DNA from: Candidatus Limnocylindrales bacterium
Lineage (GTDB): Bacteria > Moduliflexota > Moduliflexia > Moduliflexales > JAUQPW01
Direction of reading: 5' to 3'
NCBI GenBank assembly: GCA_035559535.1
Contig: DATMBG010000021.1
Location: 186,001 to 226,397 of the forward strand
Length of the DNA stretch: 40,397 nt
Each line of letters starts with the position of its first letter. Position 1 is the stretch's first letter. The notes under the pieces are model-generated. The model worked only from the letters and a program-made list of their open reading frames with translations, had not been told where the DNA came from and did no database searches. Shown piece by piece: positions 3,429-37,789 of this stretch. The translations under genes were made by a program, and so were the position numbers.

Positions 3429-3441
3429 AGTTAAAAGAGAA

Positions 3442-4572: not shown

Positions 4573-4712
4573 TATGGGAGTGGGAGTGTGTAGGGGCGAT
4601 CGGCCGATCGCCCCTACTGGAGTATGGGGGTATGGGAGTGTGGGAGTGGGAAAGAATATACTTCCATACCCCCCTACTTCCATACCCCCACACCCCCACA
4701 CCTCCATACCCC
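4572..4712. repeat. Octamer tandem/inverted repeat cassette (gtatggga/gtgtggga ... ccatac/cccacac) containing a GTAG REP palindrome at 4590-4617
   Basis: gtaggggcgatcggccgatcgcccctac is a perfect 28-bp palindrome flanked by G-rich then C-rich octamers. Confidence 0.85.
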
Positions 4713-4715
4713 AGG

Positions 4716-6071
4716 ATGCGTTATATACCCAACACCGACAAAGATCGTCAGGAGATGTTAAAAAAGATCGGGGTTCAATCGGTTGAAGAACTTTTTTCAG
4801 ATATACCCGAGTCGATCCGATTAAAACGAAAATTGAACTTACCGGCTGCCCTGTCGGAAAAAGAACTCATAGAAGAGCTGAAAGCTCTCAGTGCACTTAA
4901 TACCCCGGTAGAGGAATATATCTCCTTTTTAGGAGCTGGGGCTTATTATCACTTCATTCCCAGCCTTATCAACCATCTGGTTTCCCGCTCGGAATTTTAT
5001 ACGGCCTATACGCCCTATCAGCCGGAAATAAGCCAGGGTACTTTACAGGCCATCTTTGAGTACCAAACCCTTATTTGTCAGTTAACTGGCATGGAGGTGG
5101 CCAATGCCTCCATGTATGATGGCTCTACAGGTCTGGCGGAAGCCGTTCTTATGGCCCATCGAATCAACGAGCGTCCTGAAGTGATCCTTTCCACAGGGAT
5201 TCACCCGGAATATCGAATGGTTTTAAAAACCTATGTAAAACATTTTGGAATCACGATTCGAGAAGTCGGTTTTACAGAAAAAGGAACGACCGATCTGGAG
5301 GTCTGCAGGAGTTTAACAAATCCAAATACCTCGGCGGTCGTCGTCCAATATCCTAACTTTTTCGGCTGCATCGAAGATCTGGCCAGGGTCTCACGTATGG
5401 CTAAAGAGGCGGGAGCTTTATTTATCGTGGTTGTCACAGAACCCATAGCTCTAGGGATTCTCAAAGCCCCTGGAGATTTTGGAGCCGATATTGTTGTAGG
5501 GGAGGGTCAATCCCTGGGTAATCCCCTCAATTTTGGAGGTCCCTATGTGGGTTTTTTTGCCGTTCGACAGGAATATCTCCGGAAGATGCCGGGGCGACTG
5601 GCCGGGGAAACAACCGATTTGGAAGGAAAGCGCGGCTACGTCCTGACCCTGTCCACCCGAGAACAACACATTCGGCGGGAGAAGGCCACCTCTAATATCT
5701 GTACTAATGAAGCCCTCTGTGCCCTGATAAATACCATCTATCTGTGCACATTGGGAAAACAAGGAATTCGAGAACTTGCCATTCAAAACCTTCAAAAGGC
5801 CCATTATGCCAGGCAGACTTTGGGTCAACTGAAGGGTTATAAACTCTTATTCGATGGGCCTGTTTTTAATGAATTTGTAATCCAGACCCCCCGACCCCTG
5901 CCGGAAATAAACCAGATCCTGCTGGAAAACAAGATTATCGGAGGGCTGGACCTGAGCAGATTTTACCCGGAACTCACGAACTGCATGCTGGTCTGTGTAA
6001 CCGAGAATCATTCAAAAGGACACATAGATAACTTAGTGGAGGTCCTTAAAAAATTAACCCTTACCCCTTAA
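4716..6071 (+). CDS. gcvPA: Glycine dehydrogenase subunit 1
   Basis: MRYIPNT start (upstream extension is repeat-derived), FLGAGAY, YTAYTPYQPEISQG, REQHIRREKATSNICTN. Confidence 0.96.
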   Translation: MRYIPNTDKDRQEMLKKIGVQSVEELFSDIPESIRLKRKLNLPAALSEKELIEELKALSALNTPVEEYISFLGAGAYYHFIPSLINHLVSRSEFYTAYTPYQPEISQGTLQAIFEYQTLICQLTGMEVANASMYDGSTGLAEAVLMAHRINERPEVILSTGIHPEYRMVLKTYVKHFGITIREVGFTEKGTTDLEVCRSLTNPNTSAVVVQYPNFFGCIEDLARVSRMAKEAGALFIVVVTEPIALGILKAPGDFGADIVVGEGQSLGNPLNFGGPYVGFFAVRQEYLRKMPGRLAGETTDLEGKRGYVLTLSTREQHIRREKATSNICTNEALCALINTIYLCTLGKQGIRELAIQNLQKAHYARQTLGQLKGYKLLFDGPVFNEFVIQTPRPLPEINQILLENKIIGGLDLSRFYPELTNCMLVCVTENHSKGHIDNLVEVLKKLTLTP

Positions 6072-6118
6072 CCATCGAGTTAGATATCGTTAACGGATAA
6101 CTAGATGGTTAACAACCC

Positions 6119-7687
6119 ATGCCCATGAAAGAGACGGTTGGGACCAAAGGCCTTATTTACAATGAGGATGTGATTTTTGAAAAGAGTGTAGAAGGTAGAA
6201 AAGCCTATTCACTTCCGGCTTTGGATGTACCGGAAGTGGAGGTCCGGCAACTTATCCCAGAGGAGTATATACGCGAGGAGGTTTCGGGATTTCCCGAGGT
6301 CAGTGAGGTAGATGTCATCCGACATTTTGTCCGGTTATCCCAATGGAATTACGCCATTGACGTGGGATTTTATCCTCTGGGTTCCTGCACCATGAAGTAT
6401 AATCCCAAGGTCCATGAGGATATCGCCCGACTCCCCGGGTTTGCGCAGATCCATCCGTATCAGCCGGAGGAGTTAGCCCAGGGGGCCATTCGTCTCATGT
6501 ACGAGCTGGAAAAGTATCTTTGCGAAATCAGTGGAATGGATCGGGTTTCCTTACAACCTGCCGCAGGAGCCCATGGAGAGTTGACCGGGCTCATGATGAT
6601 TCGGGCTTATTTAACTTCCCAGGGAAATCCGCGCAAGAAGGTTATTATTCCCGATTCGGCCCATGGAACCAATCCGGCCAGTTCAACCCTTTGCGGTTAT
6701 GAGGTCATCTCGTTAAAATCTAACGACCGGGGCTGTATAGACCCCGATCTTCTTAAAAAGGTTATGAACGAAGAGGTGGCCGCAATTATGCTTACCAATC
6801 CCAATACCCTGGGGCTGTTCGAAGAACATATTCTGGAAATAGCCCGGATCGTTCATGAGAAGGGGGGACTGGTTTACGGTGATGGGGCCAATCTGAATGC
6901 CTTATTAGGCATGGCCCGCCCGGGAGATATGGGAATCGATGTCATCCAGTTTAACCTTCACAAAACTTTTACCACTCCCCACGGAGGAGGAGGCCCCGGA
7001 GCCGGTCCGGTTGGGATCAAATCTCACCTGGTTCCGTTTATGCCTGTTCCTACACCGGAACGTAGAGAAAAAACCGAGGAAGAGAAAAGAACGTATGGGG
7101 GTATGGGAGGGAGTACGGGCGACCGGCCGGTCGCCCGTACTCCCTATTTCTATTATCTGGATTACAACCGGCCCCAGTCTATTGGAAAAGTACGGGCCTT
7201 CTATGGAAATTTTGGAATGATGGTTCGGGCCTATTGTTACATACGAACGATGGGAGCTGAGGGCCTTAAACAGGTCTCGGAAAATGCGGTTATCAATGCC
7301 AACTATATCCTGAGTCAACTCCGAGACGTATACCACCTTCCCTACGACCGATATTGTAAGCACGAGTGTGTTTTTTCAGACAAATATCAACTAAAAAATG
7401 ATGTTAAAACCCTGGATATTGCTAAACGTTTGATGGATTATGGATTTCATCCTCCGACCATTTACTTTCCGCTTATCGTTCATGGAGCTTTGATGATTGA
7501 ACCTACAGAAACCGAAAGTAAAGAGACTCTAGATCGGTTCATTGAGGCCATGCGAGCCATTGCAAAAGAAGCTGAGGAAAAACCCGAGGTTGTTCGCAGT
7601 GCTCCTCACCTTCCGAAGGTCCGACGTTTAGACGAGACAACCGCCGCAAGAAAACCCAAACTTCGTTGGAAAAAAGAGGTAGGGTAA
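6119..7687 (+). CDS. gcvPB: Glycine dehydrogenase subunit 2, with an in-frame repeat-derived insertion
   Basis: [28 protein letters not shown] (PLP lysine), [11 protein letters not shown]. Confidence 0.96.
7109..7144. repeat. REP-like 36-bp perfect palindrome inside gcvPB
   Basis: gggagtacgggcgaccggccggtcgcccgtactccc; same architecture as 4590-4617. Confidence 0.85.
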
Positions 7688-22983: not shown

Positions 22984-23187
22984 AGGACTTTGGGACACGG
23001 GGATTTTGGGACGCGGGGACGCGGGGACTTTTGAGACATTTCCTCAACATAATCAGAGGTTATATAAGTAAGATTAGCTGGAACCGGGAGAAAGGGGGAC
23101 TTTTGAGGCATTTCCCCACATCTCTCAGTTCCCGCGTCCCCGTGTCCCAAAATCCCCGTGTCCCCATGTCCCCGCGTCTCCGTGTCC
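22984..23187. repeat. Octamer tandem/inverted repeats (ggacgcgg/ggacacgg ... ccccgtgt/ccccgcgt) between convergent genes
   Basis: G-rich units followed by complementary C-rich units. Confidence 0.75.
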
Positions 23188-25490: not shown

Positions 25491-25625
25491 TACCGGCCTG
25501 GCCGTCGGATATTGGAATACCTTTTAGATCATATAAAACTTAGAGTTCTCACCGGCATGAACTGTAGCAGTTCCCAAGCTATCCCACCCAACTTTACAAA
25601 AATTTTGAAACCTTTTTGTCCTTTT

Positions 25626-26027
25626 CTATTCTACGAACCGAGAGGGTAAAACCTCTTCCTCCCCCATTTTATCCTCAATAAAAGCCAGCCGGGATTCTAT
25701 TCTTTCAAAGGCAGTTGCCATGGTAAATTCCAACTGCCTGAACCGTTCGCTCTCCAGAAGGGAGGGGTTGGAACTTTTCAATTTTCTGAGTTGGGCGATG
25801 AGTTGGAGGATCCATTCCAGGAGGAAGAGGGCCAGGTAGCTGAAGAGGATAATGAGGGCAAGAACGGTGGTCGTTATACTGATCACCAGCAGAAATCGAA
25901 CATCCTGGGGAGTCAAGAGGGGACCTGCCAGTTGAAAAAGGTTATAGAGCAAATAAATTCCTGCCAGTCCTCCAAAAACGGTCAGGATCCTCAAGGAGTC
26001 TGCCAGGGGATTTTGGGATTTTTGCAT
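25626..26027 (-). CDS. Hypothetical membrane protein (2 TM plus short coiled coil)
   Basis: Two hydrophobic segments; GGAGGTGA RBS upstream on the minus strand. Confidence 0.65.
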   Translation of the reverse strand: MQKSQNPLADSLRILTVFGGLAGIYLLYNLFQLAGPLLTPQDVRFLLVISITTTVLALIILFSYLALFLLEWILQLIAQLRKLKSSNPSLLESERFRQLEFTMATAFERIESRLAFIEDKMGEEEVLPSRFVE

Positions 26028-26378
26028 GATAGATCACCTCCAGGGAATGGATAGACTTTCTGGTTTTTCAAACCAGATTTTTTTCTTAACGATACCATTG
26101 CATTTTTTCCAAGGTCTATCCGTTTGTATTCAATTCAATTGAAGCACTTCCTGGTTTCTAAGGCCTCTCCCTGTTCACCCTGGGTTTGTTGAAGGGGGAA
26201 CACCCTCCGAAGGGCAGGGTCGGGTTAAAGGCCGATTTCAATCAAAGGGTTAGAGATACGTATGCAGATAATATACAGGCGAATAAAAGGAGAAGTCAAA
26301 GGAAAATTAACCGGGTGAAAAGAAAGACTTGGGAGGAAAGGGATTGGTTTTTATTTTTTTCCGGGCCTATTTCTCTCC

Positions 26379-26407
26379 TTGACAGAGGATCACCGGTTTT
26401 ATAAAAT
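26379..26407 (+). promoter_or_regulatory. Sigma70-like promoter upstream of the WYL gene
   Basis: TTGACA-N17-TAAAAT. Confidence 0.65.
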
Positions 26408-26498
26408 TTTATCCAACTTCTTACCGATTTCCTATCCTTGCCTTTCGTAAGGGAAAAACTTCAACTGTCCGGACAAAAAATTAAAAATTTTTACCCTC

Positions 26499-26519
26499 AA
26501 TCCAGACAGGGGCGGACTC
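26499..26519. promoter_or_regulatory. Putative WYL operator box 1
   Basis: aaTCCagacaggggcGGActc; near-identical to 35733-35753. Confidence 0.55.
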
Positions 26520-26572
26520 AACGGGTGTCAGGGTCTGGTGAGAGCCAGATTCGGAGACCTAAGTTAGGGTTG

Positions 26573-27592
26573 ATGTTAAAAGAAACAAATCATTCAAACT
26601 TCAATTATGGAGCGACCAAGTTTGCACGCATGATCCGCCTCATGTCGGAGGTCAAGACCAACCCTTATCAACGACCGGAGGAGCTTTGGCGACTGTTGGG
26701 GATCAAGCGTTCGCAGTTTTTTGAAGATCGGAAGGTACTGGCCCAATTCGGTTTTGAATTCAAATATGATCGGCGCGAGAAGAGGTATAAGATAATCCGG
26801 GACATTTTCATTCCTGTGCTGGACCTTACGGTAACCGAAGTGATCAGTCTGGCCATGGCCGTACGTCAGCTTTCGGCGGCCGGGGATCATACCCTTGTTT
26901 GGGATGCCGTACAGGCGATTCGAAAGATTGCGGCCAATGCTCCTGAAGCGGCGAGTGAGATGCTTTCCTATGCGATTAACCAGAAAACCCTCAAAGATAC
27001 GTTCAAAGTCAGCCCAAAATGGATGAATCTGCTCTGGCAAGCCCGGCAGAATCGCCATCGTGTCAGGATACTCTATGAGGATTACTCCCGAGGGCAAAAA
27101 CGTTGGTTTCTGGCCGATATTTACATGATTTACTTCAAAGGTCGAGCCTTGTATGTAGATGCCTATTTACCCGGCGAGGATCGTATCGCCATGTTAAGGG
27201 CCAGCCGGATCAAGCAGGTGGAGCTACTTTCGGAAGAGTTTCAGGTGCATCCCGACTATAACTTTCATGAACGTCACCGTTACAGCTTTCGGGTCATGAT
27301 CAGTGAAAGCAAACCCGTACGGGTACGAATTCGCTTCGATCCGAAAATTGCCCCTTACATTCGTGAAGCCTACTGGCATGAATCCCAGCAGATTCTTGGA
27401 TGCGACGATGGAGGGTTGATTCTGAGTTTGACCGTAGCCGAGCCGCAGGAAGTGTTGTGGTATCTGGTCTTTCCTTGGGGTGAAGGGGCCGAGATCCTCG
27501 AGCCTGAGTCGCTACGCCAGGAAGCGGCCAGAGTTGCGCTTCAGGTGTATAAGCGGTATACAGAAAAAAAAGATCCCGGATTTGAAACCTGA
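26573..27592 (+). CDS. WYL-domain transcriptional regulator (wHTH-WYL-WCX, PafC/YafY-like)
   Basis: HTH (EELWRLLGIKRSQFFEDRKVL), YFKGRALYVDAY, LRASRIK, YIREAYWHESQ, WGEGAEILEPESLR; ATG 26573 supported by the homologous relic at 35807. Confidence 0.9.
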   Translation: MLKETNHSNFNYGATKFARMIRLMSEVKTNPYQRPEELWRLLGIKRSQFFEDRKVLAQFGFEFKYDRREKRYKIIRDIFIPVLDLTVTEVISLAMAVRQLSAAGDHTLVWDAVQAIRKIAANAPEAASEMLSYAINQKTLKDTFKVSPKWMNLLWQARQNRHRVRILYEDYSRGQKRWFLADIYMIYFKGRALYVDAYLPGEDRIAMLRASRIKQVELLSEEFQVHPDYNFHERHRYSFRVMISESKPVRVRIRFDPKIAPYIREAYWHESQQILGCDDGGLILSLTVAEPQEVLWYLVFPWGEGAEILEPESLRQEAARVALQVYKRYTEKKDPGFET

Positions 27593-27656
27593 AATCTTTG
27601 CAGTTCATAAGGGATAGGTTGAGGGCGTCCGACAGCAGGTGGAGGGAGGGTAAGAT

Positions 27657-28205
27657 ATGTCCAGACAGGATATCAAAACGATTATTTTTTTAACCTTTCT
27701 ATTGCTTGCCATCCCGGGCTGTGGAGACGATGACGATCATAATGACCTGACACCCAATGTAGCAGGGGTTTGGAATCTCAGCGCGAATCTGACAAGTAAC
27801 AGTTGTCCTGTTCCGGCCACGCCCATTGTTGTGGATCAATTTTCCATAACCCAAAATGGGAACGCACTAACCGCCGTGGATACAAGCGGAGCGCCTTATA
27901 CCGGAAGCATTACAGGTAACACCATCAGGTTATCGCTGGCGACTCCCACGACCGAAACAGAGGATTCCTGTACCCTCACAGGGGATATCGATGTCCTGGC
28001 GTTTGTGAACCCTGGGGAGGTAAATCCCAGCCGGGCCACCGGGACCCTCAGTTTTCTCTTTACCTCGAGTGGGAGCTGTGCACTTCCGATAAACTGTCGG
28101 GTGGACCACAGTTTAACCATGGAACGGGCAGGAGTGGCCAAGGAGCAGCCGTCGGGTTATCCGGGTTTAAGGAAAGTGTTAGGAGAGATGATGAACAGGT
28201 TTTAA
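27657..28205 (+). CDS. Hypothetical beta-rich lipoprotein
   Basis: Lipobox IPGC followed by GDDDD, NVAGVWNL; GGAGG RBS. Confidence 0.8.
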   Translation: MSRQDIKTIIFLTFLLLAIPGCGDDDDHNDLTPNVAGVWNLSANLTSNSCPVPATPIVVDQFSITQNGNALTAVDTSGAPYTGSITGNTIRLSLATPTTETEDSCTLTGDIDVLAFVNPGEVNPSRATGTLSFLFTSSGSCALPINCRVDHSLTMERAGVAKEQPSGYPGLRKVLGEMMNRF

Positions 28206-28218
28206 GTGAAAGAGCTGT

Positions 28219-28241
28219 AAGCGGCCCGCAAAGGGCCGCTT
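28219..28241 (+). terminator. GC-rich hairpin after the lipoprotein gene
   Basis: aagcggccc-gcaaa-gggccgctt; weak U-tract. Confidence 0.5.
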
Positions 28242-28242
28242 C

Positions 28243-28377
28243 ATGGGGATAAGGGTTTTCTTTGATAAAGGGTTAGGCGAGTTAGCCATAGAATGGATTC
28301 ACCTTCAGTGGGGGCGGGCCCTTTTAATCATGGGAGCCGTTTTAGTAATTGCCGGGGCTATTGTAAAGGAAAGCTGA
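28243..28377 (+). pseudogene. 44-aa hydrophobic ORF, probably a C-terminal fragment of a membrane protein
   Basis: MGIRVFFDKGLGELAIEWIHLQWGRALLIMGAVLVIAGAIVKES; one TM; no RBS. Confidence 0.35.
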
Positions 28378-28598
28378 GTTGCTCACTCTACTCTACAGCT
28401 ACTTGCTCGGATTTTTAATGTGTCACTTTCAGCGATGCGTTGTCGGTTGCCTGCGCTTGGGTTTTTGAAAGATTCTGAAAAAGAAGGGCAACCGGGTCTA
28501 TTTGAGTAGAAGTGTGATAGGTAAGTCATGAAGGCTCAAAGGTTATCGTTACAAATACCGTGAATCGATACTCCATGATCATAAAGGAGGGTGATGAG

Positions 28599-28958
28599 AT
28601 GAGTTTACAGGAACAGATTACAAAAAGCAAAGAAATAAAAAGAGTCGCCGGCTACCTGAGAAATGTGTTTGAAGTAGAAATTGCCTATGATATCTTAGAT
28701 AAAATTGCCAAGGCACGAAAAATCGAAGATTTTTGCGAAGGTCTGTATACCGCTCTAAGACTTCAGGAAAAGACTCAGAGAGAAAAAAAGAAAGAAGGTA
28801 TTAACAACATTTATATCCCGTCGGGAGATGATCTTCAGAAGGTTGTGGAGCTTGCTAAGCAAAACCTTAAGGAAACATCGAGGTATTTAGCTTCTCTAGC
28901 CTTGGCATATCCAAGTAAAAGAACTGAGAAAAAGGAGGAATCGATATCATGTTTTTAA
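28599..28958 (+). CDS. csa5: Type I-A Cascade small subunit Csa5/Cas11a
   Basis: AYDILDKIAKARKIEDFCEGLYTALRL, IPSGDDL; first gene of the cas operon; RBS AAGGAGG. Confidence 0.82.
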   Translation: MSLQEQITKSKEIKRVAGYLRNVFEVEIAYDILDKIAKARKIEDFCEGLYTALRLQEKTQREKKKEGINNIYIPSGDDLQKVVELAKQNLKETSRYLASLALAYPSKRTEKKEESISCF

Positions 28959-30292
28959 GGATTACAGGAAGAATTTTTCTGAATGTTCAGTCGATGAACG
29001 CTCAGGGTGGCGGTGGAACTAATTATATTGAGATAACTAAAGTTCCTATCATTTTAAAATCCAATGGGAACTACAAACCTTGTGAGGTCCCTGCTATTTC
29101 TGGCAACATGATCAAACATTATCACTTTGTGGGGTTTACAGAAAGATTTAAGCAGACTCCTTACGCCCAAAATCTTACGTGGGATGCATCCAGGGCTTAC
29201 GTTGCTTTAAGATTTGATCGCGGTAAAACAGCCAAAAAAGCAAATGGACAAGAGATTTCCCTGCAATCAGAAGGAGAAATACTAAGCCATTTTGCAGATG
29301 CCGATCTTCATGGCTTTTTAGCCCCAGATACCCAGTGTCGAAGGGAATCTATTTTGAAGTTCTCTTTCTTTGTTCCAGTAGAAGAGTTCGTTGAAGAGGT
29401 TGAGGTAAAGGCTGTGGTTCATAACAGAGTTGATGTAGATGAAGAGGGTAAGATACCCCCTAGAGAAGAAGGTGCCATGATGTTCTTTAAACGAGAGTAT
29501 ACCTCTGCGCCATATGGTTTCCTTATGAGCTTTGATCTACCTTACAGCGGGCTAACTCTCGCAAGCATGAACTCACCAAACGTACTGGGAGTACTCGAAC
29601 GCCAATCAAGGGTTAAATCAGCCATCTTAGGGCTTATGGACCTGTTATCTGGAAGGGCGGGCGCAAGTTTATCCCGGGCTTTTCCCGCTGCAAAGGTTGA
29701 AGAGTTAATCGTGGCTTCTTCCGAAGAGCCGCTTCCGGCCCTGGTTCACGGGTTTTACAAAGACTATGCGGAACAGAGCGCCAAAATCCTGAAGGCTTAT
29801 AAGAGTCTTTCGAGTACTGATATTACTGTAAACCTCTATGCCAGGAATTCTCAAAGAAAATCTGAACTTGAGCAGATGCTTAAGGATAGCCAGAGTAGCT
29901 TAGAAGTCAAGGTTTTTGATGACTTCATAAGCCTTTTATCCGATGCAGAGAAGAGTGCTGAGGAGGTAATTGCGAGTATGGCCATGAAAGAGCTTAAAGA
30001 AATACAAGAAAAGGTTTCTCTTCAATCAAAAGAAGAAATCAAAAAGGTTTTAGAGAACTGGCAAAATCTATTGGCTAAAGCCCAAGAGATTTATCCAGCA
30101 ATATGGGAAGAGTATAACCTGCTTGAACAATCGATGGAATCTGAAGATAAGGATTTGAAAAAACTTGCTGATGAGCTTAGGGAAGCAAACTCCACGGAAA
30201 AAAGAACTGAATTGATTAAGGCTCTGAGGGAAGGAATCGAAAAGAAAAAAAACAAAAAGAAGGAGGAAGAAGGTGAAGGCTCTGGCTCTTAG
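28949..30292 (+). CDS. cas7: Type I-A Cas7 (Csa2/DevR) with a C-terminal helical extension
   Basis: NAQGGGGTNYIEITK, EVPAISGNMIKH, DADLHGFLAP, HNRVDVDE, REY, PALVHGFY. Confidence 0.93.
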   Translation: MFLRITGRIFLNVQSMNAQGGGGTNYIEITKVPIILKSNGNYKPCEVPAISGNMIKHYHFVGFTERFKQTPYAQNLTWDASRAYVALRFDRGKTAKKANGQEISLQSEGEILSHFADADLHGFLAPDTQCRRESILKFSFFVPVEEFVEEVEVKAVVHNRVDVDEEGKIPPREEGAMMFFKREYTSAPYGFLMSFDLPYSGLTLASMNSPNVLGVLERQSRVKSAILGLMDLLSGRAGASLSRAFPAAKVEELIVASSEEPLPALVHGFYKDYAEQSAKILKAYKSLSSTDITVNLYARNSQRKSELEQMLKDSQSSLEVKVFDDFISLLSDAEKSAEEVIASMAMKELKEIQEKVSLQSKEEIKKVLENWQNLLAKAQEIYPAIWEEYNLLEQSMESEDKDLKKLADELREANSTEKRTELIKALREGIEKKKNKKKEEEGEGSGS

Positions 30293-31133
30293 AGTACGAG
30301 GGCCCTTGTACTCCTCAAAATCTGCCCCCAGGGAACTGCTGTCTTATCAGGTGGCTATCTGTCCGCCTTTGCCCTTACCTGCTGCACTTCTAGGTGCTTT
30401 GATCCGAGCCTATGCCCGGCTTGATAGGAGTGTGTCAAAGGATAAGGTGGATAAAGCTGCGGTAGAATACCTTGAAAGGTTCAAGAAGTATGGCATCTCA
30501 GCTACATGTAAGCTTTCCTCAGATTCCTCTCTTATCAAAGGAGCCATATTACTAAAAAGATTTAGAACTCTAGAAGCAACGCCCCCAAAGGGAGAAGAAA
30601 AAAGTGATGCCATGCGCCGTGAGTACATTTTCCATAATAAACTGGATATCTTCTATCTCTTTGATTCACCACCTGATGACTTCAAAAAGATAGAGCAGGC
30701 CGGGTATCTGATTGACAGGATGGGTGATACAGAATCTTTAATTACCGTTGAAGAGATTATCACCGTCAATAATCAGAACCCCGTTAATGATCGAGAAGTT
30801 GAGATCAATACCGTTACTCCCTTTGACCTTTTGGATGAGCATCCGTCTAATGGGATGATTTGGAACGGGCTGGCTGAGTCAATATATCCAGGTAGGGAAG
30901 CAAGGCCAGGAGCATTTGTGTTACCCCTTGAAACAAGGGTTTCAAAGGGATCTGAGTATTTCGTTGGATGTTCGTTCCAAGCTAAAATAAAAGAGGGCGT
31001 TAACGTTCACAGCTTCGAGTTTAAAGGTGAAACGATTACAGTGATAAGTTGGGCAGCTCAACAAATTACTTATAAGACCGAGCAAAGAAAGAAAACAAAA
31101 GATGGAAGAGGAAAAGGTAAAAGAAACTTTTAA
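30273..31133 (+). CDS. cas5: Type I-A Cas5a
   Basis: SYQV..PPLPLPAALLGAL, LLKRFRTLE, EKSDAMRREY, IDRMGDTESL. Confidence 0.9.
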   Translation: MKALALRVRGPLYSSKSAPRELLSYQVAICPPLPLPAALLGALIRAYARLDRSVSKDKVDKAAVEYLERFKKYGISATCKLSSDSSLIKGAILLKRFRTLEATPPKGEEKSDAMRREYIFHNKLDIFYLFDSPPDDFKKIEQAGYLIDRMGDTESLITVEEIITVNNQNPVNDREVEINTVTPFDLLDEHPSNGMIWNGLAESIYPGREARPGAFVLPLETRVSKGSEYFVGCSFQAKIKEGVNVHSFEFKGETITVISWAAQQITYKTEQRKKTKDGRGKGKRNF

Positions 31134-32523
31134 GAGGATTATCGAAAAAGAACCCTACGATTATCAAGAGAGAGCATTCCGAGAAATCCTCAATCTCTCT
31201 GATTCGGGTGGGCTGGCCTTAATAGAAGCACCTACCGCGTCGGGTAAAACAGAAGCGGTGGTATTTCCTTATCTAACCCAACACGACATAAAGAGCTTTC
31301 CACTCGCCAGGAGATTGATTTACGTTCTTCCAACTCGCGCACTGGTTAACGCCCAAGCCCTGAGGATAAAAGGGTATGCTCAAAAGCTTGGCCTAAATCT
31401 GGTTGTTAACATAGATCATGGTGCTGTTCAATCTCCCACACCAATGTTCTATGGTGATGTTGTCCTTACGACGTGGGACGCTTTTCTCTATGGATATGCA
31501 GCTCAAAGGACCATAGGGACCAGGTTAACCATCCCTGCCGGGAATTTGGCTCTTTCCATGTTAGTCTTTGATGAGGTTCAGATGTATCAGGATTGGGACT
31601 TCTATACACCCAGGCTGATGGGATCTATTTTAAACCACTTTAAAGGCCCTGGAATTCCCATTGTGTTTATGACGGCCACACTACCTGCACGGCTAAAGGA
31701 AATGTTGGGTTTAGGGGAAGCTGTTCTAATCTCATCTCTTAGCTCTGACGCTAAAAAACCCCTTCGTGGAACTGTCCATGTTGAAATTGAAAAGGAAAAA
31801 GACATCTTAGACGTTATAGCTAAAAATAGAACCACCCTGGAAGAGACTATAAAAAGACAGGAGAAAGTGCTGATTGTAACCAATACGGTAAAAAAGGCCG
31901 TTGAAGTTTGGGAGAAAGTTAAAGAAATCGATTCAGAAGCAATTTTGCTTCATTCGCGGCTGGTCAATCAGGCAAGAAGAGAAAGAGAGCAACAACTTAT
32001 CAACGGGCACTTTAAAGTGTTAGTTGCAACCCAGCTGGTAGAGTCAGGTCTTGATATACCGAAAATAACTTTGGGTATTGTGGAAGCAGCTCCACCCGAT
32101 GCTCTTATCCAACGAATCGGTAGGGTTGCAAGAAGAGAAAGCGAGCATGGGCAGGTTTTAGTTGTGATACCAAGAGAAAATGGGAAAGTTCACTTTAGAC
32201 CATACTTGTCAGTCAGTGAAGATGATTTGAAGGGATTGAAGGCTGAGATTGAGAAATTAGACGCAAAAATCAAGAAATTAAAAGAAAAAAATGAAAAGGC
32301 TGATAAAATTAAAAAACAACACAAGGAGCTTACACGGCAGCGTGAAGAGCTTAAACGTATTTACAAAAAATTTTATACTTTGGAAAATTTCTGGGCTGAC
32401 TTGAACAGGGACAGCGTGTCTGAAGCATTAAATAATCTGGAAGCGTGTCGAAAACTCCTGGATAATTTCTATGATCAATTCATTGTTGAGGAAGAAGAAA
32501 ATGGCGAAGAGAAAGCAGAGTAA
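31102..32523 (+). CDS. cas3: Cas3' SF2 helicase, N-terminal part
   Basis: PYDYQ, APTASGKTE, VLPTRAL, FDEVQ, MTAT, LLHSRL, VATQLVESGLD, LIQRIGRVAR. Confidence 0.92.
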   Translation: MEEEKVKETFKRIIEKEPYDYQERAFREILNLSDSGGLALIEAPTASGKTEAVVFPYLTQHDIKSFPLARRLIYVLPTRALVNAQALRIKGYAQKLGLNLVVNIDHGAVQSPTPMFYGDVVLTTWDAFLYGYAAQRTIGTRLTIPAGNLALSMLVFDEVQMYQDWDFYTPRLMGSILNHFKGPGIPIVFMTATLPARLKEMLGLGEAVLISSLSSDAKKPLRGTVHVEIEKEKDILDVIAKNRTTLEETIKRQEKVLIVTNTVKKAVEVWEKVKEIDSEAILLHSRLVNQARREREQQLINGHFKVLVATQLVESGLDIPKITLGIVEAAPPDALIQRIGRVARRESEHGQVLVVIPRENGKVHFRPYLSVSEDDLKGLKAEIEKLDAKIKKLKEKNEKADKIKKQHKELTRQREELKRIYKKFYTLENFWADLNRDSVSEALNNLEACRKLLDNFYDQFIVEEEENGEEKAE

Positions 32524-33028
32524 AATAAAAGAAGAAACTAAAAAATCAATCGTGGAAGAAATTAAAAAGCGTGAGAACGAGATACAGAGAATACTTGCTG
32601 CTGCAGAGGCTTACTTTAGCGAGTTCTCCCTCTTCTCCCTTCCACCCGAGATTGAACTCAGAGCGAGACCGGAGCTTTATGTCACGGCGGTTTGGGTCCC
32701 CTCCTGTGAAGAATTCAGAGAGCTAAGAGAACAGATTGAACAATTCAGCAAAGGTTCAGACAACTCAAAAGATGTGGAAGCTTCGCCCCAGGAGATTCGA
32801 AAACTGTTTGAAGATTACTCCTTCAATTTACCTCTCCGACAGGCACATGCCGTTTTAAAGTGGGACGACAAAAAATTCATTGTCCTTGAAGTTAGCCAAA
32901 CCTTGAAGAGGGAAGGGAAAATCGAGGTCAGGATAAGAAAACAAGACTATCTATCAGGTCTTACGACCGCTTTGGTCAAAGAGTATGATTCCGAAATGGG
33001 GTTAATAGGAAATCATGAGAGAGAATAA
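32501..33028 (+). CDS. Cas3' C-terminal domain as a separate overlapping ORF (or frameshifted continuation)
   Basis: YFSEFSLFSLPPEIELRARPELYV and terminal EYDSEMGL resemble the I-A Cas3' C-terminus; +1 frame relative to upstream ORF; GAGGAAG before ATG 32501. Confidence 0.72.
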   Translation: MAKRKQSKIKEETKKSIVEEIKKRENEIQRILAAAEAYFSEFSLFSLPPEIELRARPELYVTAVWVPSCEEFRELREQIEQFSKGSDNSKDVEASPQEIRKLFEDYSFNLPLRQAHAVLKWDDKKFIVLEVSQTLKREGKIEVRIRKQDYLSGLTTALVKEYDSEMGLIGNHERE

Positions 33029-33848
33029 TACCTCATTTAAATGTCCCCATAACTACGGCTGCACAGGTCTTGTAGACTGTAAACTTCCTTCCTTCTATGA
33101 GGGGAAGAATGGAAGCAGAGAACCCAAGGAATGCTTTGTCCAGCACATAGAACTTTTGCTCAATACCTGGATAAATCGGCTGGAATTAAAATACTTACCT
33201 TCTATTCTCAGGGTCTGTAAAACAATAGACCCACTGTTGGATCCAGATACCCTAAACAGCTTAATAAAGGCTGTGATGATTTTTCATGATGTGGGAAAAT
33301 TAACCGACGTTTATAAAGCTGGTAGGGGTATAGGGGACTTTCGCCATGAGTTTGTTAGCTCCTATGTTTTCAACTTGGTTCTTGAAAAGCTTTCGACCAA
33401 GTTTCACTCTGAGTTAAAAACGGCGGCGATAGGCGCTGTGCTCCTACATCATGAACCTATCCTTATGGGACAGGTTGGTCAAATTCATGAGGAGAAACTT
33501 ACGACCACTGAAATTTGGAGACGCCTAAATAGTGTGGATAAAGAGAAAACCTTACTTCTTGAACGAACAGTTGAAGCTATCAACAAACTTGTAAAAAAGT
33601 ACTGTGGATGGGATGTGGAAATACCGCGAGAGATAGTGATCAAGGAATTGGCAGGTTTTCTTCAACGACTCCTCACTGGTTCGAGACACCTGGGTAAGAG
33701 AGAAGATAGAATAAAAAGGAGAATTTTAGTAGGTGTTTTTTTATCACCCCTTGTTTTATGTGATTATACGGCTGCAGTTAATTTCAGAAACGAAGACAAA
33801 CAAATAACCGCTTTTTGGGAAGTAGCAAAATCAGAGGTGGAGTTATGA
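33015..33848 (+). CDS. cas3'': Cas3'' HD nuclease
   Basis: QH, FHDVGKL, FRHE, LLHHE, LCDY metal ligands. Confidence 0.9.
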   Translation: MRENNTSFKCPHNYGCTGLVDCKLPSFYEGKNGSREPKECFVQHIELLLNTWINRLELKYLPSILRVCKTIDPLLDPDTLNSLIKAVMIFHDVGKLTDVYKAGRGIGDFRHEFVSSYVFNLVLEKLSTKFHSELKTAAIGAVLLHHEPILMGQVGQIHEEKLTTTEIWRRLNSVDKEKTLLLERTVEAINKLVKKYCGWDVEIPREIVIKELAGFLQRLLTGSRHLGKREDRIKRRILVGVFLSPLVLCDYTAAVNFRNEDKQITAFWEVAKSEVEL

Positions 33849-34897
33849 AGCTATACACTCCCGGTTTTGGAGAAATTCCAGATATGTACATAACCTATGG
33901 TCTTTTTGAGGGAGCAGTAAGGGGATTACCTTACTCAGAGGTAAAACTCTTTCCGCAAGGACAAAAATTCATTTTGGAAATCGAAGCCGATGAAAGCGAT
34001 ATTTCCAAAGGTCTGATAAGAGGCGTAAAAGATGCTATTATAGAAATGCTAGAACTCTTTCAATCAACATGGAAAATCGGATATACATCCTTTGGAGGAG
34101 CTATAGATAGGCTTGATTTAGGAAGGAATTATAAGTCTGTTCCTGGAAAGTTAAAGACTTTTTTGAAAAAATCCTGGGATCTTTCAAGTAGTTATAAAGA
34201 AGCTCATCACAAGTGCAGTAAAAAAACGACCCCTTATCTCCCTATTACTCCACAACTGGGCACGAAGCGTTCTTTTTTATATGAGACTGTAGAACGAAAA
34301 AACTACTACCAAATCCTTGGAGAAAATTGCTGTTTTCCCCTCTGTTGGGTTGGCTTACATTATTATAGCTCTTTCTATACAACAGGAGATTCAACCACTT
34401 TTTGCACTTTAATTCCAACATCTTTGTTAGATAAAACTGACTTACTTCCAGTTAAAGATATCTCAACTCGTGTTCAATACCACAAAGAGTCGAGGAAAGT
34501 CCAGCTAAACTTGTTTTCCTTGGCACTTTATTTGCTTTCAAAAGGTGAGACATTATTTGCATTGAATAAGCCATGGAAATTATGTATCTATAACATTTCT
34601 ATTAGTGGAAAGGCCCCTTCAATAAGAAGCTACACAATAATTCAACCAAAAAGATTTCTCGAGTTTATTTCAGTAGTAAAATCCTCCTCGCCAAACTGGC
34701 TAAGACTCTTAGATAGTCTAATAAAAGAAGACAAGCAAGAATCTATTTCACTTATTGCAGAATCTCTTTTGTTCAACAATACAAATAGCTTATACGATGC
34801 CCTGAAGCAAGTCGAAAGAAGCTTAGGCAAAGAAGAAAAACAGTTCCTCGACGAGGCTATAGTAGATGCTCTCTACAAAACTATTTGGAGTTTGTAA
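33845..34897 (+). CDS. cas8a: Type I-A large subunit Cas8a (Csa4-like)
   Basis: MKLYTPGFGEIPDMYITYGL, YLPITPQLG, PLCWVGLHYY; ~350 aa; ATGA overlap with cas3''; operon position. Confidence 0.75.
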   Translation: MKLYTPGFGEIPDMYITYGLFEGAVRGLPYSEVKLFPQGQKFILEIEADESDISKGLIRGVKDAIIEMLELFQSTWKIGYTSFGGAIDRLDLGRNYKSVPGKLKTFLKKSWDLSSSYKEAHHKCSKKTTPYLPITPQLGTKRSFLYETVERKNYYQILGENCCFPLCWVGLHYYSSFYTTGDSTTFCTLIPTSLLDKTDLLPVKDISTRVQYHKESRKVQLNLFSLALYLLSKGETLFALNKPWKLCIYNISISGKAPSIRSYTIIQPKRFLEFISVVKSSSPNWLRLLDSLIKEDKQESISLIAESLLFNNTNSLYDALKQVERSLGKEEKQFLDEAIVDALYKTIWSL

Positions 34898-34936
34898 GAT
34901 GAGGGGAACTTATTTGAGGGTTATAGGTGAAATAAA

Positions 34937-35734
34937 ATGCCCATTGCAACCGTTCTTCATAGTATCCTTTCCGAAGATCTGGACGCTTCAAAAATCAGCG
35001 GCGAAGCTCTCCATGGACTCTTTTTTGCCATCCTTGCCCAGAAGGACAAAAGACTGGCCTGGCAACTCCACAAAGCAGCCGGAACAAAGCCTTTCACCCT
35101 GGCCTTCCTGAACCGGGGAAAAAAGAGCAAATTTAAACCCGGTGAAGAACTGAGAATGAGGGTGACTTTACTCGACGATTCGCTTTTCATGAAACTTGCC
35201 GATGCCTTTATGAATCCGCAAATGGAACTCGAACTTCAGAACGCCAGAATAATTCCCACGATGATCAACCTCTCTGCCACAGACAGGGGCCTGTGGACAG
35301 GACAACAGAAATGGGAAGAAATCTACGATTCGGCAGGGGAAGGTATCGAGATAGTCCTGCAGTTTGTAACCCCCACGACTTTTCGGCAAAGAGATATGGA
35401 CGTTCCCCTCCCCATTCCCAAACTGGTGTTCGGCAGCTATCTAAAGAGATGGAAGGAGTTCTCTCCTATTCCCCTTCACCCGGATTTACAAACTGTAGTG
35501 GAAGAACGCATCGCTGTCTTCGAACCACACATTAAACCCGCTCCGTTTTTTACAGGAAAAGTATGGGTACACGGATTTATCGGTCGAAGCCGGTTTAAGA
35601 TCATGGACGATGTCAGCCCGGAACTCGTGAAACAGATTAATATCCTTGCCGACTTTGCCTTTTATTCAGGAACTGGTTACAAGACTACGTATGGAATGGG
35701 AATGACCAGAAAGTTAAAAATTTTTTATATTTAG
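34937..35734 (+). CDS. cas6: Cas6 crRNA-processing endoribonuclease
   Basis: LHGLFF, KPFTL, FVTPTTFRQ, PLPIPKLVFGSYLKRW, Gly-rich loop YSGTGYKTTYGMG. Confidence 0.93.
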   Translation: MPIATVLHSILSEDLDASKISGEALHGLFFAILAQKDKRLAWQLHKAAGTKPFTLAFLNRGKKSKFKPGEELRMRVTLLDDSLFMKLADAFMNPQMELELQNARIIPTMINLSATDRGLWTGQQKWEEIYDSAGEGIEIVLQFVTPTTFRQRDMDVPLPIPKLVFGSYLKRWKEFSPIPLHPDLQTVVEERIAVFEPHIKPAPFFTGKVWVHGFIGRSRFKIMDDVSPELVKQINILADFAFYSGTGYKTTYGMGMTRKLKIFYI

Positions 35735-35925
35735 TCCAGACAAGAGCGGACTCGGGTAGGATCAAGATCTTGTAACAGTTGGACTTACAGAAATAGGTTA
35801 AAATTAATGATAAAACCACTGTGGATCAATTTTCCATAACCTAAAGTGGGAGCATCCTTTCCGCAATCTCACAGGGCTGAAACCTCAGATATGGAAGGGA
35901 CAGAGAAATAACCTTCAAACTTCCA
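35704..35925 (+). pseudogene. Decayed, internally deleted copy of the WYL promoter/start fused to a lipoprotein gene fragment
   Basis: 35735-35814 aligns ungapped to 26501-26580 (51/80 by hand). 35820-35851 matches 27830-27861 (30/32) and translates VDQFSIT*SGSILSAI versus VDQFSITQNGNALTAV. Confidence 0.75.
35733..35753. promoter_or_regulatory. Putative WYL operator box 2
   Basis: AGTCC-N10-GGACT palindrome; 17/19 identical to box 1. Confidence 0.55.
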
Positions 35926-35993
35926 GAGCAGATTATAAGCCTGAGAGGCAAAGCGTGCGGGAACAATCTTACCACTTAAAGGAGGAATTCCCT

Positions 35994-36503
35994 ATGCTTA
36001 AAACCACGGCATCGATACTGGTTTTTGTGTTAATCTTTGAATCTATTGCCTTGGCCGTTGATTCCAAAAATGCGGCTTATGTAGGCGGTACGGCCGTTGA
36101 GTTTGGGAATCCAGAAGAACCTATCGAGGGGAAATTGCTCACAAAGAGTGAAACAGAGCTTCAATTTGTTTGGGGGGATAAGAAGGGTTCTAACACCTTT
36201 TCTATTCCCTATAAAAATATCCTGGATTTAGAATACGGCCAGAAAGCAGGGAGAAGGGTAGGAGTAGCCATAGGAACTGCGTTATTAGTAAGTCCCATAG
36301 GTCTATTTGCCCTTTTTTCCAAGAAACGAAAGCATTTTCTAACCATCGGATATAAAGATGCCCAGGACAAAGAACAGGTAGTTGTTTTTGAGTTAGGTAA
36401 GGGTATTGTACGAACCACCTTGCCTATCCTGGAAACCCGGTCGGGTAAGAAAATTGAGTATCAAGACAAAGAAGCAGAGAAAGCCGGTAAAGGTGGGAAT
36501 TGA
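35994..36503 (+). CDS. Hypothetical exported protein
   Basis: RBS AAGGAGGA, signal peptide ending ALA, motif LEYGQKAGRRVG...LFSKKRKHFLTIGY. Confidence 0.75.
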   Translation: MLKTTASILVFVLIFESIALAVDSKNAAYVGGTAVEFGNPEEPIEGKLLTKSETELQFVWGDKKGSNTFSIPYKNILDLEYGQKAGRRVGVAIGTALLVSPIGLFALFSKKRKHFLTIGYKDAQDKEQVVVFELGKGIVRTTLPILETRSGKKIEYQDKEAEKAGKGGN

Positions 36504-36747
36504 GTCCGGTACTCTCTTACAGGAATATCAAATGAGTTTGCTTTAAGTGACCTCTACTTATATTAAGTTTAGATCTCTGCAAATTTCGATCGGTACCAGG
36601 ATCTCCCTTTTTAACCCTCTTACCAGAAGTATATATAACCTTGAAATCTTTTTAAGCATGCCCCAAACTTAGTTGGAGTAAGAAGTGACTCTCAGTTAAA
36701 AGAACTCAAAAACTAATACATAGTCCATTTAATATTGGCTTTAGAAA

Positions 36748-36881
36748 GCTGCCTTCACTCCCCAGCTCCCCTCTTCCGCAGCATGGGAGAGGGGCCGGGG
36801 GTGAGGGTCACTTAAACATTAAGCAAAATTAAAGTAACAAAGCATTACTACCTTGTAAAGTTAGATTTGAATAATCGTTCT
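36748..36881. repeat. REP/MITE-like repeats shared with 18048-18250
   Basis: gctgccttcactccccagctcccct...ggagaggggccgggggtgagg; tactaccttgtaaagttagatttgaataa. Confidence 0.75.
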
Positions 36882-36899
36882 ACCCCCACCCCCAGCCTC

Positions 36900-37053
36900 C
36901 ATACGCGCCAGGATAAGAAGTCAGGCCCCGGCGGGGCGATCTGTTTCACAGGCCGCTCCTCCGGAGTCTGAATGACTGGATCCCCCGATCTATATCGGTG
37001 GCTACCCACAGTTCGCCCCTGATGGGGTTTTTCAGCTTAATCTGGCGTGTATG
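36900..37053 (+). mobile_element. MITE copy 2 (154 bp)
   Basis: Imperfect 18-bp TIRs catacgcgccaggataag / cttaatctggcgtgtatg; no ORF. Confidence 0.8.
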
Positions 37054-37300
37054 CCCCGGTCCTTCTCCCGAAGCTTTTGTGTAATTTTCCACCCTTACCT
37101 CCCCTAATCCCTCGGCACCAGGTTAAGGCACCTCCACCCGACTCCTCCCACTTTCGATTTGAGAGACTAGGACTCAAAACGGCTTGGCTAGGCTTTGGGG
37201 GGTTGGTTACTCTTTTTGCAAAAGAAGGATCTTGCCTTCCCCAAGGAGTTCGGTCCATTTCGCCGTTTAGCCGATGGACTCATTGAACCCTCTCTTAATC

Positions 37301-37396
37301 TCCGAAATGAAAAAGTAGGTAATGGTTAGAACTTACGTCGAGGGCTACCAACCTTTCGCCCTTGACGGGGTTTTTCAGCTTAACCTGATGTGTATG
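37301..37396 (+). mobile_element. Partial MITE (right end)
   Basis: Matches 16261-16356 (acttacgtc..ggctacc..ttttcagcttaacctg..gtatg). Confidence 0.65.
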
Positions 37397-37789
37397 GGGG
37401 GTTAGGAGAGTATCTAGACCCCCGGGTCTAACCCTTAACTTGGCCCATAGGGGGTAGCTCGTTGTGGTAGCCCTATTTAAGGGCGATCCTGGATGGTCGC
37501 CCTGCAAGGTTATATAACACTTCTATGATTTAGTATAAAATGATGAATATCATCGGTATTGACAAGCTTGCTTTTAGAGAGGAAGATAACCGGGTAGATG
37601 GGGTTCCGGTGGAAGCGGAAAATTCAACCTAACCTCGATGGGGGATTTCACACATAAAATTAACCCAGGAATGCATTTCGATCCGGAACCTAAGATATTT
37701 TGTTAATTCAAGGCATACTGGTAAGGTCTGCAAGTCTTAAAAGAGCGCCTGTACCGGGCCGGTTATCCTTCAAAAAGGAGGTTTTACTT

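Follow-up and report, generated by a model that had tools for sequence, protein, structure and literature searches.

A type I-A CRISPR-Cas interference module of archaeal type in a diderm bacterium, probably supplied with guides from a shared array

How does a bacterium with an outer membrane come to carry a CRISPR-Cas effector of archaeal type, and from where would that effector obtain its guide RNAs when neither adaptation genes nor a repeat-spacer array lies beside it? These questions are raised by an operon in a 40,397-nt stretch of DNA (hereafter the window) from a Candidatus Limnocylindrales bacterium (assembly GCA_035559535.1, contig DATMBG010000021.1), whose genome (G000) is a metagenome-assembled draft of 58 contigs with 95.8% completeness and 4% estimated contamination. 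The window is the final 40 kb of a 226-kb contig (C21) that ends 4.7 kb past cas6, the last gene of the operon. To our knowledge, no type I subtype is less bacterial than I-A, whose solved or tested examples all come from hyperthermophilic archaea. A preliminary description of the window took the operon to be a type I-A effector with a separate HD nuclease, transferred between domains and either using CRISPR RNAs (crRNAs) in trans or repurposed. We consider it probable that this archaeal-type module, a bacterial offshoot of its family, was acquired horizontally and serves as an interference module fed by the crRNAs of a shared array, as in Pyrococcus furiosus.

Open reading frames (ORFs) were typed using the Pfam, NCBIfam (with TIGR cut-offs) and PADLOC libraries of hidden Markov models (HMMs). 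The ORF listing shows eight plus-strand ORFs between 28560 and 35734, all of them open and with ends that overlap or nearly touch:

28560-28958, + strand: csa5/cas11a, small subunit (PADLOC Cas11a 1.5e-18; TIGR01878 27.7 bits, 2.6e-06, below the cut-off of 53.35)
28949-30292, + strand: cas7/csa2, backbone subunit (TIGR02583 241.6 bits, above the cut-off of 212.6)
30273-31133, + strand: cas5a (TIGR01874 83 bits, above the cut-off of 23.05; PADLOC Cas5a 6.2e-24)
31102-32523, + strand: cas3' helicase core and coiled-coil linker (TIGR01587 169.7 bits, above the cut-off of 102.45; PADLOC Cas3a1 1e-70)
32471-33028, + strand: cas3' C-terminal domain as a separate ORF of 185 aa (no family match in Pfam, NCBIfam or PADLOC)
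33015-33848, + strand: cas3'' HD nuclease with a Cys-rich N-terminal extension (PADLOC Cas3a2 6.4e-29; TIGR01596 41.9, just below the cut-off of 43.45)
33815-34897, + strand: cas8a2/csa4, large subunit and I-A signature (Pfam PF09703 Cas_Csa4 116.8 bits, 1.7e-33, above the cut-off of 25; PADLOC Cas8a 3.8e-31)
34937-35734, + strand: cas6 endoribonuclease, bacterial Cas6d-like (PADLOC Cas6d PDLC02042 1.1e-42; TIGR01877 61.5 bits, above the cut-off of 58.65)

The gene types and overlaps of the seven-gene csa5-cas7-cas5-cas3'-cas3''-cas8a-cas6 operon that had been proposed were borne out by the three HMM libraries, but the ORF at 32471-33028 had been missed, and the operon starts with the GTG at 28560, the ATG at 28599 that had been given as its start being internal. 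The NCBIfam cut-offs are passed by Cas7, Cas5a, the helicase and Cas6, and failed by Csa5, Cas3'' and Cas8a2, which PADLOC and Pfam show clearly; since Cas8a2 scores only 114.7 against the TIGR01914 cut-off of 232.5, it is best regarded as a diverged member of its family. The nearest solved structures by sequence are the I-A Cascade-Cas3 entries 7r21, 7r2k and 7tr6-7tra (Cas7 against the Cas7a of 7r21/7tr6-7tra, E 1.9e-84); the subtype is supported by HMM typing and structure matches alike, and the separate HD nuclease by HMM typing. Csa5 is homologous to csa5 in 15/17 genome loci examined, including the cut gene of L006, and the Cas7 motif that had been likened to Pyrococcus occurs identically in a Pyrococcus Cas7. 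The locus thus holds the members of an I-A interference module (a Cas8a large subunit, a separate Csa5/Cas11a, a Csa2-family Cas7 with Cas5a, and a split Cas3'/Cas3'' with its catalytic motifs), and forms a complete one. The coding strand of the operon (window 28000-34000) is also more purine-rich than the flanks (GC skew reaching +0.23 and AT skew +0.21), in keeping with the many linkers and tails rich in Lys and Glu that Cas7, Cas5, the helicase and the C-terminal-domain ORF contain.

The Cas3 of this module is encoded in three pieces. The helicase ORF aligns to residues 6-365 of the 651-aa I-A Cas3 helicase 7r2k_A (E 4e-81) and residues 34-73 of the C-terminal-domain ORF align to residues 481-520 of the same protein; this second ORF matches the C-terminal part of the single-ORF Cas3' of seven archaeal genome loci and 11 metagenome loci. 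It is also the source of the ARPELYV motif picked out in the preliminary description, a motif of the same type being present in 7r2k. In the alignment, the break sits between the conserved blocks 'ALDxVY' and 'LFSLPPE..RARPELY', and the C-terminal-domain ORF overlaps the helicase ORF in the +1 frame. The Cas3' of a second bacterial locus (L013, on contig CAZHST010000018.1 of an uncultured bacterial metagenome-assembled genome, MAG) is broken at the same position and likewise continues in a +1-frame ORF that overlaps the first. Each of the two overlaps contains a ribosome-binding site of the GAGG type together with a start codon. The likely start in the window is the ATG at 32501, behind the GAGG site. 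The split is absent from all 14 non-bacterial genome loci in which Cas3' is complete or nearly so. Because L013 has the same break, with a ribosome-binding site and start codon inside the overlap in both loci, Cas3' is read as a stable split gene with coupled translation, not as a fresh frameshift. A programmed frameshift joining the two pieces was rejected in favour of separate initiation, given the ribosome-binding site and start codon within the overlap of both bacterial loci.

The catalytic motifs are intact in the pieces. The Walker A motif and the motif II DEVQ of the helicase are common to the archaeal homologues in the alignment; DEVQ in place of DExH was considered as a sign of inactivation and rejected, as 8/8 archaeal fused-Cas3' homologues in the alignment have DE(V/I)Q and DEVH is found only in L005. 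Cas3'' keeps all invariant HD residues (H44, H91-D92, H111, H145-H146 and D250), and its Cys-rich N-terminal extension occurs, among 10 sequences, only in the window and L013, being absent from the eight archaeal ones. A coiled-coil linker (Pfam DUF7201, 6.8e-06) forms the end of the helicase ORF. Cas7 carries a helical C-terminal tail of ~115 aa (residues ~326-440) that is absent from all 21 aligned homologues, and none of the 86 Cas7 matches is longer than 366 aa. The AlphaFold 2 model of Cas7, with a mean predicted local distance difference test score (pLDDT) of 83, places helices at 326-397 (72 residues), 401-412 and 416-440 with pLDDT around 80-88. The length of this tail varies in a related strain, where a soil metagenome run has an in-frame 18-nt insertion.

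Whether the operon truly belongs to a bacterium can be judged from its surroundings. The window encodes TolB, YbgF/CpoB, the GcvT/PA/PB glycine-cleavage proteins, a TRAP transporter, a heptosyltransferase, an ABC exporter, a sigma-54 activator, a sugar transferase and a lipoprotein, and because of this bacterial envelope and metabolic gene content the host is identified as a diderm bacterium; the lipopolysaccharide and Tol-Pal context reported in the preliminary description agrees, with TolB, CpoB and the heptosyltransferase on the 226-kb contig. The nearest organism-named relatives of GcvPB come from candidate division KSB3 (71%), Ca. Vecturithrix granuli (69%) and Methylomirabilales/NC10 (69%). 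A gcvT-gcvPA-gcvPB operon lies near the I-A module in both bacterial hosts, at 3421-7687 in the window (19 kb off) and at 1681-6033 in L013 (directly adjoining), with GcvPB 68% identical between the two; this may be coincidence or an old shared neighbourhood.

That an archaeal fragment was mis-joined into a bacterial contig during assembly or binning is, in our judgement, the least credible of the explanations considered here. It would account for the solely archaeal identity of the organism-named Cas7 relatives and for the atypical composition of the operon, and a metagenome-assembled draft with 4% estimated contamination offers the opportunity; yet the operon lies within a 226-kb contig with bacterial genes on both sides, and its WYL regulator and Cas6 belong to bacterial types. 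For the likely source run, a Logan contig made by a second assembler covers 25500-36792 with both junctions included and zero differences from the window, and identical pieces of flank and operon are present in an independent mine-metagenome run. In a sister species (G001; ~87-93% DNA identity, 97% complete) the left flank occurs together with fragments of the genes on either side of the operon, and L013 shows the same operon in a second bacterial MAG next to glycine-cleavage genes. The Logan contigs stop in repeats near 36800: the window at 36700-37100 and 37300-37450 consists of non-coding multi-copy repeats, with 20-49 copies in G000 and dozens in the sister species, and it is there that the contigs of the source run break. 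Elsewhere in the window, short tandem repeats with an 8-nt period, G-rich or C-rich, are found at 4619-4712, 22985-23028 and 23131-23187.

Where, then, did the module come from? The 86 Cas7 matches include 18 that are organism-named, all 18 archaeal and 45-52% identical (Thermococcus, Pyrococcus, Methanocaldococcus, Archaeoglobaceae, Thermoproteota and Nitrososphaerota), and the best unnamed ones reach 56%. In the species-genome collection 26/27 I-A loci are archaeal, the exception being the bacterial L013, and among the 19 loci on JGI metagenome contigs none exceeds 56% Cas7 identity and none has a WYL gene or a split Cas3'. L013 is the best match for 7/9 genes compared (WYL, Csa5, Cas5, both Cas3' pieces, Cas3'' and Cas8a), although its Cas7 is not the most similar one, and it shares three derived characters with the window, namely a WYL gene immediately upstream, a divided Cas3' and a Cys-rich extension of Cas3''; identities between the two are 47% for Cas7, 44% for Csa5, 45-50% for the helicase and 24-25% for the C-terminal-domain ORF. 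In the Cas7 phylogeny, one of the checks called for by the preliminary description, the window joins a four-member L013 clade that is sister to a Thermococci/Methanococci/Archaeoglobi group, at 84% SH-aLRT only. The preliminary description had named a widespread bacterial I-A clade as one of two things that would speak against it, and this was not found: an I-A Cas7 is present in 1/9 species genomes of the window's phylum in the collection (G000 only), and a Cas7 over the family cut-off in 1/251 genomes of the phylum of L013.

The cassette is compositionally foreign to its host. The operon has 41.45% GC against a genome mean of 45.7% (sd 2.0), a value as low being found in only 0.52% of 5233 equal-sized genome windows, and by tetranucleotide distance it ranks within the top 2% of 600 random windows. 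The by-eye impression that csa5-cas8a is more AT-rich than the flanks was thus accurate: these genes have 36.5-43.3% GC, the lowest being cas8a2 at 36.5%, and cas6 is host-like at 46.6%. The L013 cassette, with 52-56% GC against 63-65% in its flanks, is low in the same manner. The organism-named relatives of the window Cas6 are Meiothermus, Calidithermus and Chloroflexota, and no significant similarity was detected between the Cas6 proteins of the window and L013. Because cas6 is host-like in GC and has bacterial named relatives, and because the Cas6 proteins of the two bacterial loci are unrelated, the module looks like a mosaic, in which a bacterial Cas6 and a bacterial-style regulator were recruited later to an archaeal-type effector core. 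Downstream of cas8a in L013 (15890-17309), a short ORF start is duplicated ~1.1 kb apart, with apparent small toxin-antitoxin-type ORFs between (a reading by eye); a cas1 remnant at this place was unsupported (tblastn with G000 Cas1/Cas2/Cas4, best E 0.89-0.96). Taken together, the module appears to represent a small, deep and rare bacterial lineage of an otherwise archaeal I-A family, acquired horizontally by this host. The proposed inter-domain transfer fits the archaeal identity of the named relatives and the foreign composition, but it was not a recent direct transfer from Pyrococcus or Thermococcus, because the closest whole locus is bacterial; the module came by way of the bacterial lineage. 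Literature searches on bacterial I-A systems or archaea-to-bacteria I-A transfer found nothing specific, although supplementary subtype tables could show more loci, and section 10 of the 2025 classification paper, in the portion consulted, gives no figure for bacterial I-A (PMC12669027).

Two genes stand between the bacterial flank and csa5:

26438-27592, + strand: WYL1, a regulator with WYL and WCX domains (Pfam WCX 2.6e-15, WYL 7.8e-10)
27657-28205, + strand: orf182, a host lipoprotein gene, not cas (signal peptide and lipobox in the translation; no Pfam family)

A Csa3-type regulator is typical of subtype I-A, although not defining, and the preliminary description, which overlooked the WYL gene, had named Csa3 as the usual one; there is no Csa3 in G000 (best TIGR01884 score 23.3 bits against a cut-off of 60.2), and a WYL regulator stands upstream instead. 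WYL1 is conserved in G001, 46% identical to the WYL gene directly upstream of L013 csa5 and 39% identical to that of the I-D locus of G000, and all three cas gene clusters of G000 are headed by a WYL gene. The sole strong sigma-70-like site (11/12) in 26000-37000 is at 26379-26407, just upstream of WYL1, the number of such sites being not above chance. No convincing promoter was found between the lipoprotein gene and csa5, where inverted repeats are weak, and the counts from the promoter and terminator scan were at chance. It is probably WYL1, rather than Csa3, that controls transcription of the module, judging by its position and conservation; in a literature search, partly of abridged sources, control by a WYL protein was found described for no type I-A system. 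The lipoprotein gene orf182 is host-like (GC 51%), and its nearest Atlas clusters are bacterial hypothetical proteins and lipoproteins with scores of 0.93-0.94. The two 182-aa ORFs on either side of the operon were considered as a duplicated target site and rejected, being unrelated to each other.

The question of guide supply turns on what the rest of the genome contains. Within the 40-kb window no array was found (Tandem Repeats Finder gave 26 short rows, none CRISPR-like, and a repeat-family search three trivial families), nor any remnant of cas1, cas2 or cas4 (tblastn best E 1.3), as had been stated; cas1/cas2/cas4 in the locus, an adjacent array and a Csa3-type regulator, the features of a complete locus, are all lacking here, although an interference module need not have the adaptation genes to be counted as I-A, as P. 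furiosus shows. For the genome as a whole the statement does not hold, a cas4-cas1-cas2 set lying on contig C27 and an array on contig C16; this was the second thing that had been named as speaking against the preliminary description. C27 carries one cluster with a WYL gene (WYL2), I-B genes, Csx1 and III-D genes, all typed via 81-96% identical orthologues in the sister species, and a second with a further WYL gene and a complete I-D set with Cas6d, Cas4, Cas1 and Cas2. Genome-wide there are one cas1, one cas2 and one CRISPR-linked cas4, with a stand-alone Cas4-family gene on contig C2, and two Cas6 genes for four effector modules (I-A, I-B, III-D and I-D). The I-B Cas3 is also in two adjacent ORFs (370 + 543 aa) in both species (G000 C27 11095-13770; L041 10519-13253).

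The sole array of G000 consists of a 37-nt repeat in 18 copies, separated by 17 spacers 34-38 nt long, and sits at the very start of C16. In G001 the orthologous array (the same repeat with one mismatch, 18 copies) sits ~285 nt downstream of cas2, with the C16 flank after it, because of which the C16 array is assigned to the I-D adaptation module. In G000, the interval from cas2 to the end of the contig has a ~1.2-kb stretch of dense GC-rich palindromic (REP-like) elements (C27 44977-46188) where the sister species has only ~285 nt before the array. The C16 repeat ends GGGATTGAAAC, and arrays beside archaeal I-A loci end ...ATTGAAAG in 3/4 examined, the Archaeoglobales one ending GGGATTGAAAG; 10 of the last 11 nt of the 3' tag match those of the archaeal I-A-linked repeats. 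When the repeat ends are compared, the 8-nt handle that would be held by Cas5 and Cas7 is nearly the same as in archaeal I-A, differing from the repeats beside the archaeal loci only in its last base. Two spacer cores searched against viral contigs gave no match and hence no protospacer from which a protospacer-adjacent motif (PAM) might be derived. On C21 at ~20291, outside the window, there is a single 18-nt match (<=2 mismatches) to one CRISPR repeat end on the opposite strand, which is probably due to chance.

These data also bear on the explanation that the module is an ordinary complete I-A system, whose own dedicated array, and perhaps adaptation genes, were missed by the draft or lie on another contig. 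Arrays often break assemblies, this one is a 58-contig draft of 95.8% completeness, the known array itself opens its contig, the contig of the window breaks off 4.7 kb past cas6, and the Logan contigs break in repeats at ~36800. Yet a scan of all 58 contigs disclosed neither a second repeat family with more than three copies at regular spacing nor the known repeat anywhere else, and only one cas1 and one cas2 are present; HMM typing shows non-cas genes following cas6; the L013 locus is also without an array or cas1, with four cas1 genes elsewhere in its genome; and the precedent of P. furiosus, as far as set out in the part of PMC4666368 consulted, shows that none is needed. A dedicated array thus seems improbable to us.

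Still less plausible is that the module has been repurposed for a role other than defence, such as RNA-guided regulation or transposon targeting. The effector-only layout would fit such a role, the predicted helical tail of Cas7 is unusual, and uncharacterised I-A systems associated with Mu-like transposons are mentioned in the 2025 classification paper (PMC12669027, portion consulted), which also states that most transposon-associated CRISPR effectors are inactivated. Here, Cas3' and Cas3'' are both present with helicase and HD motifs intact, no transposase or Mu-like gene occurs among the typed ORFs of the window, as would be looked for in a CRISPR-associated transposon, and the 17 spacers match the G000 genome only by chance (14-16 exact bases). 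The earlier suggestion of repurposing hence finds no support.

An interference module that uses crRNAs in trans, as had also been suggested, is then the best reading of the single shared array and the P. furiosus precedent, and the following course of events can be proposed for it. The transcript of the single 37-nt-repeat array would be cut by one or both of the G000 Cas6 enzymes, and the resulting crRNAs, each with the 8-nt AUUGAAAC 5' handle, would then be taken up by the Cas5a/Cas7 backbone. As in the archaeal I-A complexes of known structure, Cascade, with Cas3'/Cas3'' already bound to it in auto-inhibited form, would locate DNA flanked by a PAM, an R-loop would form at the target and the target would be degraded, with the upstream WYL protein regulating transcription in place of Csa3. 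In P. furiosus, an I-A module without acquisition or processing genes silences DNA using crRNAs from shared arrays (PMC4666368, in the part consulted), and Cas3 is described as an integral, auto-inhibited part of I-A complexes, with Cas6 and crRNAs common to co-resident systems (PMC11127173, likewise in part).

The history of the cassette within its genus also bears on the question. One segment of the window is missing from the sister species:

27742-36196, strand unspecified: segment absent from G001, an apparent deletion scar (G001 homology breaks on both sides)

Homology with G001 (87-93%) runs through WYL1 to 27741, inside the lipoprotein gene, and returns for only 86 nt (36197-36282) inside the ORF downstream of cas6, after which G001 continues with the WYL2-I-B-III-D cluster; no Cas7a match was found in G001. 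The junction looks like a deletion scar and, because G001 keeps fragments of both flanking genes, we infer that the cassette was already present before the two species diverged and that G001 later lost it. A soil run (X4) has 90-96% identical pieces of the WYL gene, the lipoprotein gene, the cas7 tail, cas5, cas3', cas3'' and cas6, with a 2-nt insertion in cas6 at 35450, and truncated Cas6 relatives at 93% and 84% identity are known (P0207 at 187 aa, P0208 at 194 aa). These observations and the identical pieces in the mine metagenome agree with a cassette that is older than this strain and is decaying in places. The junctions of the cas clusters are exchanged between the species (G000 C21, C27 and C30 against G001 C175 and C122): WYL1 joins I-A and a beta-lactamase gene in G000, and joins the I-B/III-D/I-D cluster in G001, where it heads one continuous cluster ending in the array, that cluster being on another contig in G000. 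The exchange may be a real rearrangement or an assembly effect; a mis-join at a shared repeat was rejected as its cause, the junction regions sharing no sequence.

It could accordingly be held that the operon is a decaying relic, acquired and then deprived of its own array and adaptation genes, no longer used and simply not yet burdened with disabling mutations. The deletion in the sister species with its two leftover gene fragments, the truncated and frameshifted cas6 of close relatives, the want of an array or cas1/2/4 in the window, and the lack of any Cas7 above 56% identity on record, though Cas6 relatives at 84-93% are, would all suit a relic. Against it, the eight ORFs are intact, every checked catalytic residue is kept, the overlapping coupled gene ends are preserved, and the soil relative still has pieces of most genes. 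Moreover, L013, whose proteins are only 25-50% identical, keeps the divided Cas3' together with the ribosome-binding site and start codon, and this conservation speaks for long-term selection. We regard the relic as unlikely, while giving it more weight than any other rival.

Several observations nevertheless weigh against a functioning module fed by the shared array. Since the array is physically linked to the adaptation module of the I-D system, its spacers were probably chosen with an I-D-type PAM; the Cas6 of the I-A locus is only 28% identical to the I-D Cas6; and the 37-nt repeat folds weakly (z -1.36). Among the public runs listed as containing the sequence there was no RNA run, a result that speaks neither for nor against expression. 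The draft state of the genome, in which a dedicated array could be unassembled, and the stop of the window at a contig end have been mentioned. The grouping of the window Cas7 with the L013 clade has no more than its 84% SH-aLRT, and no well-supported set holds the window Cas7. Finally, the module is dispensable, having been deleted in the sister species, and its cas6 is truncated or frameshifted in close relatives.

A more ambitious version of this account can be put forward only tentatively, as we think it more doubtful than not. The window and L013 may form an undescribed bacterial I-A sub-lineage, marked by three-piece Cas3 and WYL control, and the module may be one swappable cassette of a WYL-governed four-effector system (I-A, I-B, III-D and I-D) built on a single I-D-type adaptation module and array, the cassette having been deleted at the head of the cluster in the sister species. 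The Cas7 tail might in that case be a new appendage of the backbone, perhaps docking the detached Cas3' pieces.

How does the module compare with known systems? The I-A system of P. furiosus has the same set of subunits, the window gene order csa5-cas7-cas5-cas3'-cas3''-cas8a is that of euryarchaeal loci, and in P. furiosus too the effector genes lie away from those for adaptation and rely on the crRNAs of shared arrays (PMC4666368, as far as consulted). The window differs in its diderm bacterial host, split Cas3', Cys-rich Cas3'' extension and ~115-aa Cas7 tail, and in having its own bacterial-kind Cas6 and an upstream WYL gene, with Cas7 only 45-52% identical and the other subunits lower. 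L013 resembles the window in the WYL gene directly upstream, identical gene order, split Cas3', Cys-rich Cas3'', low cassette GC and absence of cas1 or an array from the locus, but is unlike it in having no Cas7 tail, an unrelated Cas6 that lies upstream, a second WYL gene, and a host of another phylum with ~64% GC. The Sulfolobus and Thermoproteus I-A systems share the subtype and subunit families (window Cas7 against 3ps0 and 9cp1, E 1.5e-12), but form a much more distant branch that is controlled by Csa3, which the window genome is without. WYL regulators of CRISPR-Cas and defence loci have the same WYL and WCX architecture that is found beside the cas genes of the window.

This is no new kind of system, for the effector-only I-A layout has a tested archaeal precedent, and the layout is the less surprising because sharing of arrays by such modules has already been documented in P. 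furiosus. The novelty is modest but real: a small, deep bacterial I-A branch whose Cas3 comes in three pieces, whose regulator is a WYL protein and not Csa3, and which has recruited a bacterial Cas6. In G000 a single adaptation module and a single array appear to serve four effector types, which would make this genome a natural test of how far Cascade loading and PAM reading tolerate such sharing. The branch has been in bacteria long enough to gain bacterial regulation, a bacterial Cas6 and a gene architecture of its own, and the locus suggests that an I-A effector module can pass between domains and be served by adaptation genes and an array of foreign origin. Archaeal I-A complexes with pre-bound Cas3 have reportedly been developed as detection and editing tools; because of this, a variant from a bacterial host could prove a practical alternative to the existing ones.

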